DNA of 63,682 nucleotides from a virus (taxonomy: Duplodnaviria; Caudoviricetes). The stretch lies in the IMG/VR virus record IMGVR_UViG_3300020121_000104, positions 1 to 63,682 of that record. One strand, 5' to 3'. Each line of letters begins with the position of its first letter. Position 1 is the first letter of the stretch. Under the pieces are notes generated by a model that saw nothing but the letters and a program-made list of their open reading frames with translations, did not search any database and was not told the DNA's origin. The position numbers were made by a program, and so were the translations under genes. Shown piece after piece: positions 41,111 through 63,682 of this stretch.

Positions 41111-44100
41111 CTAAATACCCGTGCTGGTCAGATAGGCCGGCGATGTGCAGTCGACCTGCGTGATCGGGTTCCCAGAATATGCCGGGTCCATATACCAGCC
41201 GACCGCCGGAGTGGTGAATATGCCCATATCGGTCTCGACGCTGACATAGACATGCGCATAGGCAATTGCGTTCTGCCCGCCGCCGCCCACGGTCGTTGAG
41301 AAGGTCATCAACTGAGCGATCGAGTCGCCATAGCTTGGCAAACTGTCTATGCCGCCGATGCTGACCGGAGCGCCAGGAGAAACGATCCGTTTACCGACCA
41401 GACTGAGATCGACCGTCGCGACGAGATTAGAGACTGCACCTGTTGCGTTGACGAACCCATTTGCAGTGATGACCAGCTTCCCACCCGCGCCTGAAGTATC
41501 GGCCTTCCGCACGTCCACGATCATCTGCTTAAGAGGACCGTATGCGGCGATCGATTGGGACAGAAGCGAGGGATTTAGCGGCATCTGACCGGACATTGTG
41601 CGCGAGCCAAACGTCTGGAACGGTTTCCCCTGCTGCGGCGCGTTGCGGGCGTCCATCACGTAGGGATGCCCGGTGGTCCCCATGACAGTCAGGCTCGGGC
41701 ATATATTCGGAGCGAACTTCAGGGGGTTGGTGAGGACCGTGTGCGTGCCTGTACCGGCCTGGGCCACATTCACATTGGTGGCGCCATTATCACCCGATAT
41801 CTTAAATTGATTCGCCCCTCCCACTCCAGCGGCAGTAACCGTATAAACGGCAGTCAATGACAATAGGTCATTAGCCGTCATCGCAGCGGTAAGCGATGAG
41901 CCCGGGGTGGGGCTGATGAAGTAAGTTCCGGCCCCAGCATTTTTTGGTCCGGTAACGATCGTTCCGGCGGGAGCGCCGACAAGAGCCAACGGATAAAAAA
42001 TCATGCCGCCGATGGGGCCGCCGCTCAGCGTATTGCTCCCTGACGTGATGGTGCCGGTGAAACTGTGCCGCACCAAGGTGGTCGCCGGCAGCGTACCATC
42101 CGTCTTGAGCACGAGAGGCGTACCGTTGGCGATGCCTGTGCCGCCAGTGATGGTGGCGGCTCCTGCTCCCGCAGGTCCTGCCAAGATAACCGTTTTGCCG
42201 GTTGCGTCGGGCGGCAGTGAAGAGATGTTCCAAGTTCCGTTCAGGCTCGCAAAAGCGCCGGTGCCAGTCAGGGATGACAACGTGACCGCTCTGCCTGGAG
42301 TATAATTCGGTGGTGCAGCCGCAGTAAGGACGAGCGTGATGAGACCCGTACCGCTGTTATAATTGTTACTTCCAGAGTTAGAAATTGTCACCGTTCCCGG
42401 CGCGGGATTACCCCAATCGAAAATCGCCGGACTCGCCACGGAAATCGTCGAGGTATGTGAGACGGAAGCGCCAGCCGGCAGTGATGCAAGGGTTGTGGTT
42501 ACGTTGATAGTCGGCTTCTGAATGACGGTGCAAGTAACCGGACCCCCCGAGACCGCCACCGGGTCGCCGTTCAGGTAGAGAGATAGCTTGAAGTCGTCCG
42601 CCCCCGACTTCTGCACGGCATAGTAGGGCTGGCTCTCCATCAACCCCGTCAGCACTGTGCCCTTGAGATTAATGAGATCATCGTTGGCGACCGGCGTGCC
42701 GACCCAATGGACGCCGGCGCCTCCCGATACGGTGGAAAGATTGTTGGTGACGGTGCTGCTAGCGGCTTGACCCGCGGCCACAGCTTTGATTCCAAAGTAT
42801 CCGAACATGGGACCGGCGAACTGCTGGGCCATGTCATTTATGAAACCTGACTTTCCTGGGAGCATCCAAGAGTTGGTCGCTAAATTGATGTCCCTGGGCA
42901 GCGGCGCAGTGATTACACCAAGGCTAAACGACCAGTTATGGAGCGCATTTCCAAACGATGCTGGTGAAGTATTGTCCCCGCGATTGGCGGGCTGAATATT
43001 TCCTATTCTGTTTCCACCATTCAAAACAACCGTTTCTGCGGCGCCGCCACCGAGCAGCGGACCTAGAAAGATTTGTCCAAAGTCGCAACCCTCGATAATC
43101 GTGTTCTTGGCGGTCCCGCCCAGACTGGCTCCCTTGCACCGCCTCAAAAGAAGCTGTTCAGGCCCGCTACCCTCACATTGAATCGTATCGACTTGCGACC
43201 CAATTACCTCTCCTACGATGACGGCCTTGTCGAACAAGATCGCTGACTCCGGTTCCGAACTGTACCCAGTAGAACCGGAATCGGCATTTTCGAAAATAAT
43301 ATGGTCTATCTCCGTTGCTAGGATTGCCTGCCCCTTTATCTGTGCATTAATGAGCTTTGTATACCTGCCCGTCGCCCGCGTTTGAAACGTGTAATATGTT
43401 GAGAGATCATAAACCTCACATTCACCATTCCATTCCGGCGGCATCACATAGACGTGCGCAGGGCCGATCGGGGCATATGCGCCGCTGGCCTGACTGATGT
43501 ACTGTGGATAATTGTCGAGATACGAATTGCGCAGGAAGTCAGTATAGCCGGCAAAGCCGCCCGCCCCCAGGTTTGGATATCCCAGGCTTCCAACGCCCGT
43601 GATGAGGTTTACGGCCCTGATTGGTCTGAACTCGTTGATTCCGGTGCTCAGTGGGGTTGATAGGCGCTGCCCCCATACATCCTGGCAATCGATTGCCCCG
43701 AAGTAAACCCAACCGCCAACGGTAATATTGGCAGCGTCGGCAACATTTTTCAGTTTGAATGTTTGAGATCCAGCGGACACGCTATCAATTGGATAGCCAG
43801 TATACGGATAAAATCCACCAGTCAGCCCGATCCCGCCTGCACCTATAGAGACACCACCGCCGCTAGGCGTGCCGTCCTCCCTGGTTCCGACTATGGTCAA
43901 GCCGGCAGCGTATAATCTTGCCCGGCGCAAACCTGCAAAGACGAACGTCGTCGTAGTGTAGTAGCTTCCGGTCAATACAAAGTTCTTCCAGTCCGCGTTC
44001 ACTGTTGCCATGTACACGTTGACCGGACTGCCCCCAAACGTGATGGTGGGATTCGGCGTCGACCCTCCGATGTCGCCGCTCTGGAATATGGCCCAAGGGT

Positions 44101-45103
44101 CTAAGACGGTGACCTTGAAAGAACTTGCCAGCATGCTGTCGGTTGCAGCGTACACAGGCATAAAGGCTGCGAGCGTCGCGCCAGCAGGGGCGGGCGTTGT
44201 TGGCAGCGCTCCACCCGAGCCAGCAAAAAACACAACAGGATCGTGCGCGCGCAGCATGTGCGCAGCCGGTATGGTGCGGGCGGCATCGGCGAACGTGCTG
44301 ACGACGCCCGTCGACGTGTTGATGGTGACCGGAACCGGAGTTCCGTAAACAGGATCGACGATCTTAATGCCACGAATGGAGCCCGCCGGGGGATTATTCA
44401 CCCCCATCATATTAAGAAAGCCCTGGCGATTATCGGTCGCTTGGCTGGACGGCAGATAGCCGTCAGCGACAAGGCCATAGGTAGCCGCGAGATCGGTAAC
44501 ACCAACCGCACCGCCCCCGCCACCAGCCGGTGTTGCCCATGTTGCATCGCCGCGCCAAAACGTCGATGATGATGCCCCTGTGCCGCTGTTGAGATTTGTA
44601 ACCGGAAGGTTGCTGACGCCGCTCAGAGTTGTAGCGCCGGTCCATATTCCAATCTGACCGTTCGTCGGCGTTGCGACATTGGAAACATTCCCGCCACCAG
44701 CAGGCGTCACCCAAGTCCCATCCCCACGCCAGAATGTCGATGATGTAGCCCCCGTGCCGCTATTGAGACGGTAAACCGGCAGATTTCCAGTCACGCCCCC
44801 TGCGGTGGACGACGCAAGGTTGATGACCGGAATATCAGCGGATACGAGAGTCCGAAATGTCGGCGTAGCAGAACCGCCGGAATTCGGGCCAGCCAATACG
44901 ACATTCGGAGCCTGTGCCGCCAACGTGACCGCAAACGTCCCGGCGGTCGTAATCGTGGATGGACTCACATTGAGGAACGACGGCAACGTCAAGGTGATAC
45001 TGGTCACCGTCCCGCTTCCGGCTACTCCGGAAAGCGTATCCCCCGGCTGTAATTGCTCCGGAAGACCGGTCGGTCCGAGGACGAGCGGGAGACGGGCAAC
45101 CAT
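41111..45103 (-). CDS. 1330-aa fibre/spike protein
   Basis: G/T/S-rich; two NLPV..LNSGTGA.SSTFWRGD.TW repeats; beta-helix-like centre. Confidence 0.75.
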   Translation of the reverse strand: MVARLPLVLGPTGLPEQLQPGDTLSGVAGSGTVTSITLTLPSFLNVSPSTITTAGTFAVTLAAQAPNVVLAGPNSGGSATPTFRTLVSADIPVINLASSTAGGVTGNLPVYRLNSGTGATSSTFWRGDGTWVTPAGGGNVSNVATPTNGQIGIWTGATTLSGVSNLPVTNLNSGTGASSSTFWRGDATWATPAGGGGGAVGVTDLAATYGLVADGYLPSSQATDNRQGFLNMMGVNNPPAGSIRGIKIVDPVYGTPVPVTINTSTGVVSTFADAARTIPAAHMLRAHDPVVFFAGSGGALPTTPAPAGATLAAFMPVYAATDSMLASSFKVTVLDPWAIFQSGDIGGSTPNPTITFGGSPVNVYMATVNADWKNFVLTGSYYTTTTFVFAGLRRARLYAAGLTIVGTREDGTPSGGGVSIGAGGIGLTGGFYPYTGYPIDSVSAGSQTFKLKNVADAANITVGGWVYFGAIDCQDVWGQRLSTPLSTGINEFRPIRAVNLITGVGSLGYPNLGAGGFAGYTDFLRNSYLDNYPQYISQASGAYAPIGPAHVYVMPPEWNGECEVYDLSTYYTFQTRATGRYTKLINAQIKGQAILATEIDHIIFENADSGSTGYSSEPESAILFDKAVIVGEVIGSQVDTIQCEGSGPEQLLLRRCKGASLGGTAKNTIIEGCDFGQIFLGPLLGGGAAETVVLNGGNRIGNIQPANRGDNTSPASFGNALHNWSFSLGVITAPLPRDINLATNSWMLPGKSGFINDMAQQFAGPMFGYFGIKAVAAGQAASSTVTNNLSTVSGGAGVHWVGTPVANDDLINLKGTVLTGLMESQPYYAVQKSGADDFKLSLYLNGDPVAVSGGPVTCTVIQKPTINVTTTLASLPAGASVSHTSTISVASPAIFDWGNPAPGTVTISNSGSNNYNSGTGLITLVLTAAAPPNYTPGRAVTLSSLTGTGAFASLNGTWNISSLPPDATGKTVILAGPAGAGAATITGGTGIANGTPLVLKTDGTLPATTLVRHSFTGTITSGSNTLSGGPIGGMIFYPLALVGAPAGTIVTGPKNAGAGTYFISPTPGSSLTAAMTANDLLSLTAVYTVTAAGVGGANQFKISGDNGATNVNVAQAGTGTHTVLTNPLKFAPNICPSLTVMGTTGHPYVMDARNAPQQGKPFQTFGSRTMSGQMPLNPSLLSQSIAAYGPLKQMIVDVRKADTSGAGGKLVITANGFVNATGAVSNLVATVDLSLVGKRIVSPGAPVSIGGIDSLPSYGDSIAQLMTFSTTVGGGGQNAIAYAHVYVSVETDMGIFTTPAVGWYMDPAYSGNPITQVDCTSPAYLTSTGI

Positions 45104-58511: not shown

Positions 58512-58742
58512 TCATTGGCCCGTTTTCTTGTTTAAATGTCTTTCATATACCCAAGCAGGATAAAATGATTTTAACACATCCTCCAGTTCAAAGTGGCACT
58601 TTTCACACAAATCAGCATCCCGAGTGCAGTGCACATTCGTATTCCCACGTTGGTCATTATATACCAAACTGTATCTTCGAATCGGAATTTCACTCAGCGC
58701 ATTACACCGGTCGCAGTAATGTTTGGTTATTGTTGCCATCAC
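58512..58742 (-). CDS. Zn-finger insert flanked by 54-bp repeat (58445-58498 / 58737-58790)
   Basis: YCDRC...DLCEKC. Confidence 0.7.
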   Translation of the reverse strand: MMATITKHYCDRCNALSEIPIRRYSLVYNDQRGNTNVHCTRDADLCEKCHFELEDVLKSFYPAWVYERHLNKKTGQ

Positions 58743-60355
58743 ATCGTCTTAAAGCTGTCCATCGGGATCATCTCGCTCGGCGTCCGATAGGCATCTCTTG
58801 GCGCTTCCGGAACGAGTTTTGTCTTAGTGTACGGCCGGCTCATCGCCGCATATCGCCAATCGTCACCGCAATGATCCTCGGCGTTGGTGTCCAAGTCTTC
58901 GGCGCGATGCGGATCGTGCTGCAACACAGGGATTGTGCGGATAGAATCAACGCACGTCGAAAAGCAGAATATCATCGGTTCGGGATCGGTCGCCGTGCCC
59001 GATCCGATCATGCGCGCCCGGAGCTGATCCCAGCCGCCCATCGGCCCGGCCTTGCCAGAGCCACCCATTCGCGTGACACGGGCGTTATCGGCAGGGCGGA
59101 AAGCCGGGATGCCTTTCTTGACCAGCTTGGCGTTGATGCGCTCGGCGATGGAGGGGCCGCCGTCTTCCTTGAATGCGCTGGGATCGAGGACGCCGTAAGA
59201 CAGCTTCGGGTCTTTTGCCTCCCGCTCTATGATGCGGTCCGCGACTTGCTCGGCGGTGAGCTTCAAACCCTTGTTGGGGCCTGAGGAAATATAGTCTTCA
59301 CGATAACGTATCAAGGATCCACGACGCAGCACGATACCGGCCTGTGCCGTGGCGCTGTCTTTGCCCCCTTCTCCAATTGTATCCAGGCATCTATCGGATT
59401 CGTAGTCATGATGTAATCGCCGCTTTCGAGGTCGATCACCCACAGCGGTGATTTCGAAATCATCCTGGACGACGGCCCACCATCCAATGCTGGCGGGAGA
59501 AGCCGAGCCCCAGTCACCGCTGCGAAAGCGCAGCCAATCCGATGGAATAGCGAACGGCGCGATAACGTGCCGGTCATTGCGCCAGCAGTCAAAGAATGCG
59601 CCGTCGACAACATCCCAGTCGCCGTACCGCATCGCCTTGACGAGAGCTTCCGAACCCAAACCTTCAAGGCGCTGTTCATAGCCGGGATCGTCCTGCATCA
59701 TGCTCGGATTGTCTTCCAACCGAGCGGGAATGAACTGGCGGATCATGCCACCTTCGGAGGCGGGCATCAAACGGGCGACCAAGGGCTGCACGCCTGCGAT
59801 GAATGTTTCCTTGACCCAAAGATGTCCGATGTTTCCTGGGTTTGCGCTCGCAAAGATGCGAGGAAACCGACCGGCATATTGAGGCGGTAGATCAATTCCG
59901 ACCATGCGGACGCGGTTGCGGAGGAATCGATACATCGTGGCCGAAAAATGCGTAAGCTCATCCATCAAGAGAACGTGAATCTCGGCACCCTGATAGCGAT
60001 AGATGTCCTTCTCATCTTTACAGTGGCAGAGATAAATCTTGCTCCCGTTCCAGAAACGAATCTCATCCTCGATGACCGAACAGAAGCCGCCGTTGGCCCA
60101 TCCTGCCAACAGCGCACGAAATCCGTTGGGGCCTTCCATGTGATTCTTGATCAGATCGAGGCGGCTGCGGCGGAACAGATAGATTTGCAGGCCGGGAATT
60201 GCAGCACCCCAGACGATGGCAGCAATACGCATGCACATAGATTTTCCGCCGCCGGCCGCGCCGCCGAATAGAACCTCTGTCGCTTTGGTCTCGAATGCGA
60301 TCCACTGCTTGGGATGCATATGCAAGTCAAGCGCGAGAGGGCGGCGGTTGCTCAT
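58739..60355 (-). CDS. terL: Terminase large subunit
   Basis: FGGAAGGGKS Walker A, LLMDELTHF Walker B, ANPG, SGDWG, EDHCGDDWRY. Confidence 0.95.
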   Translation of the reverse strand: MSNRRPLALDLHMHPKQWIAFETKATEVLFGGAAGGGKSMCMRIAAIVWGAAIPGLQIYLFRRSRLDLIKNHMEGPNGFRALLAGWANGGFCSVIEDEIRFWNGSKIYLCHCKDEKDIYRYQGAEIHVLLMDELTHFSATMYRFLRNRVRMVGIDLPPQYAGRFPRIFASANPGNIGHLWVKETFIAGVQPLVARLMPASEGGMIRQFIPARLEDNPSMMQDDPGYEQRLEGLGSEALVKAMRYGDWDVVDGAFFDCWRNDRHVIAPFAIPSDWLRFRSGDWGSASPASIGWWAVVQDDFEITAVGDRPRKRRLHHDYESDRCLDTIGEGGKDSATAQAGIVLRRGSLIRYREDYISSGPNKGLKLTAEQVADRIIEREAKDPKLSYGVLDPSAFKEDGGPSIAERINAKLVKKGIPAFRPADNARVTRMGGSGKAGPMGGWDQLRARMIGSGTATDPEPMIFCFSTCVDSIRTIPVLQHDPHRAEDLDTNAEDHCGDDWRYAAMSRPYTKTKLVPEAPRDAYRTPSEMIPMDSFKTM

Positions 60356-61783: not shown

Positions 61784-62463
61784 TCCGTCCACCATTTGCA
61801 ATGACGATTCGCCCTCACGAGCCCGCACACCTTCTCGCATGACGCCAGCTCGCCGCCGCCAAAATATCGGCAATCCTTGCATTCCCGCTCGCCGATTCCA
61901 TAACCCGCGGTGATCTTCGAAGCCTTAAAGGCGTCGAGCACACCCTTGGCGCGGAATATGCGCAGCAGTTCCCTGTCCCGTGGCGTCGGATCGTCGAGAT
62001 AGGGGCCGCACCACAGGTCGCGGGGCGGGTTCTCTGGATCACGCTTGACGCAGCGTTCCAGCGCCGGGCGGATGGCGGCTTCGTAGCGTTCGGGATTGAC
62101 GCCGAGCTGCTTGACGAATCTTTCCTCTTTTGCTGTCGCGAAGGCGTGGGCTGCGGGATAGGTATCGACCGGATTATCACCTGCGTCGATCGCCCATTCG
62201 GTGTGTTCGTGTTCAATAAAGGCTTGAAAGACCTGACGGCTGGTCATGCCGCGAATCGGACTGAGCCTCAGTTCTCGACAAAGCATCTGATCGATGTAGA
62301 CAGTTTTGCCGTCGACGCTCACGCCACCTGCGTAGGGAATATCATGCGATGTGTCGAGCTTGACCCTGGTTGCGTAAAGTTTCGCCGTGTCGGCTTCCCC
62401 GAGCATCTGGTAAAGCTCGGCATCGGATTTTTTCTCGTCGCCGTGAAGATGGCCGGTGCTCAT
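61780..62463 (-). CDS. Hypothetical protein with HExxE motif and C-terminal Cys cluster
   Basis: HDIPYAGG...VYID...EHEHTE...AHAFATAKE; CKDC..C....C. Confidence 0.7.
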   Translation of the reverse strand: MSTGHLHGDEKKSDAELYQMLGEADTAKLYATRVKLDTSHDIPYAGGVSVDGKTVYIDQMLCRELRLSPIRGMTSRQVFQAFIEHEHTEWAIDAGDNPVDTYPAAHAFATAKEERFVKQLGVNPERYEAAIRPALERCVKRDPENPPRDLWCGPYLDDPTPRDRELLRIFRAKGVLDAFKASKITAGYGIGERECKDCRYFGGGELASCEKVCGLVRANRHCKWWTE

Positions 62464-62539
62464 TTTGCCCTTTGTAACATCTGATGATCGAGCACAACAT
62501 CAAGCCGGATGATGTGGACTAAACAAGGGGAGACGAAAC

Positions 62540-62701
62540 ATGACAGAGATTCATCAACGCGCGCTGCGAATTTTGGTCTCTATGCAAGTAGCGGTGATCG
62601 AACATTGCGACGAAGACATTACAGTAACCGTAGCCATAAAAGCGCTTGAGGACTGCAACAGGGCTTGGCAGAAGATCGTCAAGGAACTCAGCAAGCTATA
62701 A
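62540..62701 (+). CDS. 53-aa counter-oriented moron (not in ORF track)
   Basis: RBS aaggggag; MTEIHQRALRILVSMQ...KELSKL. Confidence 0.55.
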   Translation: MTEIHQRALRILVSMQVAVIEHCDEDITVTVAIKALEDCNRAWQKIVKELSKL

Positions 62702-62711
62702 ATCAGTGTCC

Positions 62712-63248
62712 CTAAGCCGCCTCCGGCCGCCCGCTCAGATTGATCACCGGAGCCAATGGGGCTGCGTGATCGCCACTCGGATCGGTCTGGGCAATTTTGG
62801 CGGGAGCATCCCCGCCGAGCATCTTGCGCAGTTCGATGTGGGCGGCGAGGCGGGAAGTGACCCGAAGGTTCGGCTTGCCCTTTTCCGTAAACATGAGACC
62901 TTCGATCAGGGTGCGATCATCGGGGTCAATCTCGGCCCAGTCACGGAGCCGTGAACCATCCCAAAAAATCATGGGATCGTAGCGCAAAGCGCGCCATAGA
63001 TAGGCTTCAAGTTCCATCCGCTTTTCCGCAATGGTTTCCTCCGGCTGTCGCGTCAGCCAAGCAATGCGCGCCTGCACGTCACGACGCCTTTCGACCTTGG
63101 AACTTGCGCCGCTCGTTTCGGAAAAACCAGCAATTCGCGCCGCTTCTATCGGCTTGTGCATAAGAGCGCGAGCCCGCGCGTACCGCTCATGCGAGGCATA
63201 AGGAAGTGGATTGCTACCTTTGGTTTCTACAACCTCTGATTCCGACAC
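62712..63248 (-). CDS. terS: Terminase small subunit
   Basis: HERYARA...AARIAGFS...VQARIAWL HTH; first late gene. Confidence 0.75.
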   Translation of the reverse strand: MSESEVVETKGSNPLPYASHERYARARALMHKPIEAARIAGFSETSGASSKVERRRDVQARIAWLTRQPEETIAEKRMELEAYLWRALRYDPMIFWDGSRLRDWAEIDPDDRTLIEGLMFTEKGKPNLRVTSRLAAHIELRKMLGGDAPAKIAQTDPSGDHAAPLAPVINLSGRPEAA

Positions 63249-63605
63249 GAAATTATTCCCGACGATTCCGAATTGTGGCGACTTTGGTGCGCCCCCGATC
63301 GGGCCATCACATCCGACCGCTTGTTGGCGGAGGCCAGGGCGAACGTCCCGGCCGGTGCGCGGAAACGATGAGGGTTCCTTCCCGAGGCGTCACCCACAAC
63401 CAGCGTCCCCTGTGCGCCCAGGGGCAGAGCCTACTAACGGTCTCCGCTAAGAGATGGGCTCTTTCACATCAACGGCCGCGTTCGCCTGGCATTGGTGGAT
63501 TCCTTTTCAGCCCCTCGGCCAATTAAGGCCGCACAGGGCTTTGCGATCCTAGTCATGACCGCGGCGCATTTTGACCGACCCAATGGCACGGACCAAGAAT
63601 GCGCT
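63249..63605 (-). ncRNA. Highly structured late-operon leader RNA
   Basis: At least six stems including long-range 63333-63345 / 63479-63490. Confidence 0.55.
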
Positions 63606-63612
63606 GAGTCCG

Positions 63613-63640
63613 TCTTTACGCCTATTTGGACGGATTGCAA
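63613..63640 (-). promoter_or_regulatory. Putative late promoter TTGCAA-16-TAAAGA
   Basis: Upstream of the structured leader; overlapped by inverted repeat tccgtc / gacgga. Confidence 0.45.
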
Positions 63641-63682
63641 GGGGGAAGCGCAGCAGACTTGTGTGTATCATGCCCCGTTGGA

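Follow-up and report, generated by a model that had tools for sequence, protein, structure and literature searches.

Specialized paralogues of NusG have been described on chromosomes and plasmids; they turn on operons that are long and costly, by way of a signal in the operon's leader. In the RfaH-ops/JUMPStart system of E. coli and its relatives, a long untranslated leader heads a very long operon, and the ops element, a 12-nt sequence (GGCGGTAGnnTG), is located on the non-template strand of that leader. The rfaH gene itself stands alone, apart from its target, according to a published review (PMC7819879). In Bacillus velezensis, the gene for LoaP adjoins its target operon (dfn or mln), the leader contains a small conserved hairpin, and one study reports that LoaP needs a leader RNA hairpin for antitermination (PMC12691694). 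The LoaP system is further marked by a UNCG tetraloop in the hairpin and by a NusA-dependent intrinsic terminator in the dfn leader. For the UpxY proteins of Bacteroides capsule operons, non-template DNA, upstream duplex DNA and nascent leader RNA hairpins or pause hairpins are all described as taking part in recognition (PMC11685472).

Several phage-type systems share parts of this arrangement. In the Q/qut/PR'/tR' late-gene switch of lambda, the Q gene is immediately upstream of the late promoter and of a leader with a defined terminator, tR', and late transcription continues into the packaging genes. In HK022, the put stem-loops arise directly after the promoter and act on the polymerase that makes them, with no need for a phage protein. 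In BaGTA, where the antiterminator is BrrG, a long attenuating leader is found downstream of the capsid-operon promoter, according to a recent report (10.1101/2024.11.20.624540). Here, we describe a leader in front of the packaging genes of a soil phage that encodes its own NusG paralogue, and we compare it to these systems.

The window analyzed comprises the whole of an IMG/VR virus record (63,682 nt). Its map was taken to be circular because the record ends share an 11-nt direct overlap (63672-63682, identical to bases 1-11; 424 nt upstream of terS) and because the related genome G002 is a colinear circular permutation, in which an unbroken run leads from the NusG-paralogue gene to terS across the junction equivalent to the record ends. 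Reading along the minus strand, one meets a replication-initiator-like gene (658-1644), the NusG-paralogue gene (163-654), a variable slot, the leader of about 390 nt (63249-63640) and terS, all on one strand, which makes the paralogue gene the last conserved gene before the leader. The putative small terminase subunit gene, terS (62712-63248), was assigned by its matches to phrog_11494 (8.6e-06) and phrog_51 (1.5e-03) and had no Pfam or NCBIfam match; TerL (58739-60355) lies further along. The variable slot consists of about 184 nt unique to the window phage and contains a small ORF of about 75 codons that spans the record junction (2-166 on the minus strand, continuing to about 63622). This ORF's start overlaps the nusG stop codon (ATGA), its end falls within the promoter-like site described below, and its N-terminus looks HTH-like by eye; its first 55 residues had no Pfam or NCBIfam match. 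In the relatives, the same slot is occupied by DNA methylase genes that differ from one relative to the other, encoding 368 aa (L004 1530-2636) and 236 aa (L006 1892-2602), both of which match Pfam N6_N4_Mtase.

The preliminary description of this locus had named a NusG paralogue, and the gene is genuine. Its product matches Pfam NusG (1.3e-07) and KOW (2e-06) as well as phrog_6386, annotated 'transcription antiterminator' (5e-14), and the leader sits between this gene and terS. The best NCBIfam model was UpxY (NF033644), at 62.9 bits and below the cut-off of 100. Both RfaH models scored under their cut-offs (TIGR01955, 61.3 bits vs 144.5; NF006534, 51.6 vs 124), so RfaH equivalog status was rejected, and the LoaP model gave 24 bits against a cut-off of 125. 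Amino-acid identity to the paralogues of the relatives is 94-98%. In an AF2 model built on a 6-sequence alignment, residues 108-163 (the KOW region) were drawn as two helices and not as a beta-barrel. The drawing recalls autoinhibited RfaH, but only at pLDDT 41-55, and because of this low pLDDT the modeled C-terminal domain is uninformative on RfaH-likeness. A more distant phage, the Microcystis phage vB_MweS-yong2 (OM681334.1), has a NusG-like gene 30% identical to that of the window. This gene (43606-44271) is last in its record and terS (70-702) is first, the same order as in the window, and the non-coding DNA that separates them is about 330 nt long; the structure of that spacer was not above chance (z +0.62).

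Relatives were sought by several routes, and all searches of viral contigs converged on the same five contigs. The terS protein search gave eight loci, five of them true relatives and three with an unrelated terS and no leader; the search with leader DNA patterns returned the same five contigs, and the searches with the NusG paralogue, whether as a single sequence or as a 6-sequence alignment, returned the same four. Five NusG-paralogue relatives were found in a search of 5.8 billion proteins. No match was obtained with the terS alignment or with the leader DNA patterns against genome contigs and metagenome contigs, nor among cultured phages, by DNA or by terS protein. Seven extra loci picked up with a 17-mer from the leader's 3' conserved block were set aside as chance matches within coding sequence. 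Logan unitigs from four soil runs yielded no new leader variants, since they matched the window exactly wherever they overlapped it and did not cover 63340-63560; of the 24 listed soil runs holding the phage, none is on record as RNA. The collections searched therefore contain three distinct versions of the leader: that of the window, that of L006 (record G003) and the L004 type, which is shared by L002-L005 and is identical within the leader. All leader comparisons below rest on these three sequences, because the five contigs give only two versions in addition to the window's.

Homology with the relatives resumes at CCCCTTGCAATCC (about 63645), 5 nt upstream of a promoter-like site, at the site's -35-like hexamer. 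The 5' conserved block that begins there (block A, 63645-63498) occurs in each of the three versions; it is 94.6% identical to the G003 sequence in an alignment of 92 nt and 91.0% identical to that of G002 in one of 111 nt. It is followed by a variable central segment of 132 nt (63497-63366), which is absent from the L004 type and 29 nt shorter in L006; a 29-nt insert found only in the window (about 63469-63441) lies within it. The 3' conserved block (block B, 63365-63284) is flanked by copies of GCGCACC at 63360-63354 and 63292-63286 and shares 93.5% identity with the L004 type over 77 nt. For comparison, identity in the flanking genes is 87-88% for nusG and 75-77% for terS, so both leader blocks are better conserved than the protein-coding genes on either side. 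The last part of the leader is the terS translation initiation region (63283-63249), where GGAAT motifs stand in tandem and an SD-like GGGA lies 8 nt ahead of the GTG start codon. The L004-type leader has an insert of its own after block B, of about 80-100 nt (L004 2885-2985), which has no equivalent in the window or L006 and in which a perfect C(UUCG)G tetraloop hairpin precedes UAAAAUUG. The leader occurs once per genome: a covariance model (R1) found a single copy in each across 101,175 bases, and a blastn-short search of the window, G002 and G003 with each block found no further copies.

The promoter-like site, TTGCAA-16 nt-TAAAGA (63640-63613, minus strand), reads TAGAGA at the -10 position in the relatives and differs at only one or two of 33 nt among the three versions, and the pattern has a single match in the window. 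The plausible promoter that had been noted before the leader is therefore conserved, but its -10 hexamer is weak and a consensus scan did not call the site, and we regard it as a putative promoter. A sigma-70-like match, TTGACC-18-AAGAAT, is also found on the opposite strand (63571-63600, plus strand) within the first hairpin; the match, which L006 shares, is probably a side effect of the conservation of that hairpin.

We asked whether the leader carries a gene or a known RNA. No coding signal was seen, with substitutions distributed 13/20/16 over the three phases and stop codons in every frame on both strands, and the short ORFs of the leader had no Pfam or PHROG match. The lack of codon periodicity, the stops and indels of 1 and 29 nt between versions led us to reject a protein-coding gene, which disposes of a conserved ORF as the explanation of the region. 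Rfam release 15 recognized no known family: three matches in 62000-63682 (E 1.6-4.2) are with eukaryotic or viral families that are unrelated, and all score far under the respective gathering thresholds; nothing at E <= 10 supported an ops/JUMPStart leader, and a tRNA was likewise rejected. No intrinsic terminator was found in the leader (minus strand, 63249-63640), and terminator-like sites in the late region occur at chance frequency (24 vs 20.9 expected, and 13 vs 18.9). Rho loading was considered as well; the leader has no C-rich, G-poor stretch, and since it is G-rich rather than C-rich it offers no obvious Rho loading site.

Three hairpins are located in the 5' conserved block. H1 (63604-63564) is a 17-bp hairpin with three single-base bulges on its 5' side and the loop AUUG, the outer part of which had been recorded as the stem 63598-63604/63564-63570. 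Fifteen of its 17 pairs are invariant, one changes from G-U to U-G and one from G-C to G-U, and a single cell is U-U in L006; the loop and bulges are nearly invariant too. H2 (63562-63543), which the preliminary description had missed while every stem that it did name occurs in the window sequence, has six base pairs, an invariant stem and an 8-nt loop that differs at three positions in L006. H3 (63540-63507) is a two-part, G+C-rich hairpin, made up of the earlier stem 63536-63540/63509-63513 and its inner stem 63527-63531/63516-63520; all cells of its 12 pairs are paired, two pairs have changed on both sides (C-G to A-U and U-A to G-C), and the apical loop has 6, 4 and 4 nt in the three versions. 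Thus the loops of H2 and H3 drift in sequence and length. The block ends with a purine-rich tail after H3 (63508-63498).

Folding of the 5' 109 nt is well above chance in all three versions, with sense-strand z-scores of -3.49, -2.81 and -3.16 and 0, 3 and 0 of 200 shuffles as stable; in the window, the MFE structure of H1-H3 accounts for 47% of the ensemble. In the three-sequence alignment, 102 of 103 cells in 35 pairs are paired (99%), compared to 28-53% in slid controls. Variable columns make up 10 of 70 stem positions and 11 of 28 loop and linker positions (p = 0.012). The covariation statistics are weak because there are only three distinct sequences: three pairs of H1-H3 change on both sides, as do three in hairpin H5 (see below), and 37 of 500 column shuffles reach the observed values for H1-H3, as do 62 of 500 shuffles in the further test that took in H5. 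Covariation, proposed earlier as a check, is visible as individual compensatory changes. Among the pair cells of H1-H3, 13 are G-U and A-C does not occur. Folding of the antisense strand is weaker by 9-11 kcal/mol, yet its z-scores (-3.0, -2.7 and -2.3) are nearly as low as those of the sense strand. The pairing therefore points, not decisively, to an RNA in the sense of terS. The mostly invariant pairs of H1 would suit a DNA site as well as an RNA one.

The remainder of the leader behaves differently from the 5' third. The whole 392 nt is marginal (z -1.61; 7 of 100 shuffles as stable), and neither the central segment (z +0.44; 131 of 200) nor block B (z +0.26; 118 of 200) folds better than its shuffles. 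The large domain previously proposed here, closed by the helix 63479-63490/63333-63345, can form in the window, where 12 of 12 pairs are present and belong to the MFE structure, as does the cggccg/cggccg helix with 6 of 6 pairs. The closing helix is not conserved: L006 retains 7 of its 12 pairs without compensatory change, the L004 type lacks its 5' arm, and its 3' arm corresponds in the relatives to the variable loop of a local hairpin, H7. The enclosed stem 63457-63461/63427-63431 is likewise present in the window, but its 5' arm lies within the window-only insert. Because the closing helix, the insert-borne stem and the central and 3' folding all fail in this way, and with the middle 132 nt missing from one lineage, there is no conserved large domain, and the single multi-domain RNA first envisaged gives way to a 5' module that is conserved and, downstream of it, a series of local hairpins that changes between versions.

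Among these local hairpins, H5 (63424-63407; the earlier stem 63419-63424/63407-63412) is in the central segment, has the loop GGCGCA, and has changed compensatorily on both sides in three of six pairs between the window and L006. In block B, the candidate hairpin H7 (63353-63332) has a variable loop; in L006, read by eye from the alignment rows, its stem is kept through the loss of 1 nt from each arm while the loop is rewritten. The candidate hairpin H8 (63319-63296) shows two wobble-preserving changes, and block B may instead form an alternative long hairpin. In a control free of hand-picking, we took the pairs of the window MFE structure with a span of at most 60 nt that had changed in L006; 10 of 17 were still paired in L006 in the leader, compared to 52 of 176 in nusG and terS coding sequence (p = 0.026).

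Two short motifs recur in the leader. GANTC, the CcrM-type methylation motif, occurs three to four times per leader as compared to 2.4 times per kb genome-wide (window sites 63606-63610, 63498-63502 and 63264-63268); the site in the tail after H3 is kept in all three versions as GAATC or GATTC, and the relatives encode CcrM-like methylase genes next to the leader. GGCGCAC is under-represented genome-wide (10 vs 19.1 expected), yet two copies are found in the leader (63287-63293 and 63412-63418), the related CGCGCACC supplies a third GCGCAC core, and GCGCACC at 63354-63360 is a near copy. Copies of this type mark the borders of the blocks whose presence differs through gain or loss among lineages, and the loop of H5 consists of one of them; they may be a protein site or a recombination hotspot.

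We tentatively favor a reading of the region as an untranslated 5' leader to the late operon that carries a loading or pause region for the phage's NusG paralogue, a role suggested by context and possible rather than probable. It is ranked first because of the promoter-like site, the adjacent paralogue, the precedent of published paralogues that use leaders and the shared gene order in yong2. Transcription would start at the promoter-like site (63640-63613), and H1-H3 (63604-63507) would come at once, H1 within a few bases of the transcript start if that site is the late promoter; the lineage-variable hairpins and then the terS ribosome-binding region would follow. The adjacent paralogue, given its conservation, appears to be the obvious trans factor. 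An RfaH/UpxY-like protein of this kind could engage RNA polymerase at the conserved 5' module, where the hairpins would pause the polymerase and specificity would come from near-invariant H1 or from the non-template DNA beside it. Thus modified, the polymerase could then read the roughly 40-kb late operon of packaging and morphogenesis genes without premature termination.

The known systems share some of these features. As with RfaH, there is a specialized paralogue and a very long operon that begins with a long untranslated leader, and the factor would be expected to be recruited within the leader; unlike rfaH, the window gene is phage-borne and adjoins its presumed target. None of the three versions contains an ops string within 63249-63650. 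The nearest string in the window leader, GGCGTA(A/G)AGA, overlaps the putative -10 and lacks one base of the ops core. The LoaP arrangement is matched by the adjoining paralogue gene and by H1, the almost invariant hairpin that would be the counterpart of the LoaP hairpin, but the window leader has neither an intrinsic terminator nor a UNCG tetraloop: its hairpin loops are AUUG, AUGACUAG, UUAAUU and GGCGCA, and the C(UUCG)G hairpin is found only in the L004-type insert. The mixed recognition of UpxY would fit the hairpin module with its conserved purine-rich tail, whereas the setting differs, a phage late operon here and a capsule locus there, and the model score is below its cut-off. The position of the paralogue gene resembles that of lambda Q, but Q and BrrG belong to another protein family, and no counterpart of tR' was seen in the window leader. 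Counted against a paralogue-controlled leader are the missing ops element, the lack of a terminator to overcome or a C-rich Rho entry site, the poor -10, the low antisense z-scores, the unstructured yong2 spacer and the invariance of H1.

The best-surviving alternative, which we consider unlikely, is that the leader acts independently of the paralogue, in mRNA stability or processing (5'-end decay, or an RNase III-type site in H1) or in tuning terS translation. The structural evidence cited for the leader with a paralogue site suits this explanation equally. H1 is a long, bulged duplex and would lie within a few bases of the 5' end if the -10 is read correctly, and the weak SD of terS (GGGA) lies inside the conserved GGAAT-repeat region. 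A stability or translation element gives no account, however, of why the loop and bulges of H1 are invariant when the loops of H2 and H3 drift, and it leaves unexplained the fixed position of the leader by the NusG-paralogue gene, which holds in all lineages and, as gene order, in the distant phage. The hairpins closest to terS are also the least conserved.

A DNA-level packaging site, pac or cosB-like, bound by the small terminase, is rather unlikely. Under this explanation the hairpins would be by-products of inverted repeats. Such sites are usually located directly upstream of terS, as are lambda cos and SPP1 pac, and the leader has this position. The record ends 27 nt upstream of the conserved block, and its 11-nt terminal overlap is what would be expected from filled-in 5' cohesive ends; the layout, with terS first and the antiterminator gene last, is like that of a virion-form cos genome. 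The nearly invariant H1 sequence and the presence in the leader of two copies of the otherwise rare GGCGCAC, with a third core in CGCGCACC, also fit a protein-binding DNA site. At 11 nt the overlap falls short of what an assembler's k-mers would leave, and chance is far too improbable an explanation for it; it could reflect either filled-in cohesive ends or a circularization artifact. A duplex DNA site, however, would not select for strand-asymmetric pairing of the kind seen in H1-H3, with its 13 G-U and no A-C cells and its stronger sense fold, and compensatory changes with variable loops are found in H5 and H3. The 11-mer and window bases 1-165 have no counterpart in G001-G003, and the absence of the window's end sequence from relatives whose TerL gene is 89.7% identical argues against this explanation, as do the relatives' contigs, which are not cut at the leader, and two soil unitigs that run through the record end, past 63682.

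We regard it as quite unlikely that the region has no specific function beyond promoter and ribosome-binding site, with a G+C-rich spacer that folds by chance and conservation that reflects recent descent. The modest whole-region z-score, the central and 3' z-scores near 0, the gain and loss of whole hairpins between lineages and the small number of sequences, three, would all be in keeping with such a spacer. This explanation is opposed by the z-scores of H1-H3, between -2.8 and -3.5 in every version, by changes that are depleted in stems and mostly preserve pairing when set against coding controls, and by the 5' and 3' blocks being more conserved than the flanking coding genes. Least probable, to a degree that we think very small, is an antiterminator RNA that like put would need no factor, or else a small RNA gene of its own running from the promoter-like site to just after H3: the module is compact, stable, conserved and about 100 nt long, directly after the promoter-like site and apparently similar in position and size to HK022 put, its MFE structure accounts for the share of the ensemble given above and the 5' block stops about 10 nt after H3, but no U-tract or terminator follows H3, Rfam gives no match, a second conserved block lies further downstream before terS, and a protein-free mechanism is unnecessary because the phage encodes its own elongation factor immediately upstream.

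The structured leader first proposed thus holds for its 5' third, which has conserved hairpins whose pairing favors the sense strand, while the rest folds no better than shuffled sequence. For annotation, the term 'structured' should be kept for the 5' 100 nt and perhaps some local hairpins, and not be extended to the whole 390 nt.

In the literature surveyed, some of it accessible in part, no phage-encoded NusG paralogue acting before terS was found described; PHROGs already names such proteins 'transcription antiterminator'. What may be new here, judging from gene context and three sequences, is a leader in a phage late operon under the control of a NusG paralogue. Gene order suggests that phages use such a protein as a late antiterminator, and the distant cyanophage yong2 has the same order. 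If they do, the paralogue and its leader would make up a compact natural factor-and-site pair, for which the key question is whether the factor finds the operon via RNA, non-template DNA or both. A more specific proposal, and a doubtful one, is a late-gene switch in which the paralogue is recruited by the near-invariant RNA module H1-H3 at the head of the packaging operon. If true, it would represent LoaP-style RNA recognition in a paralogue of the proteobacterial type, taking the place of Q- or N-type antiterminators in this phage.
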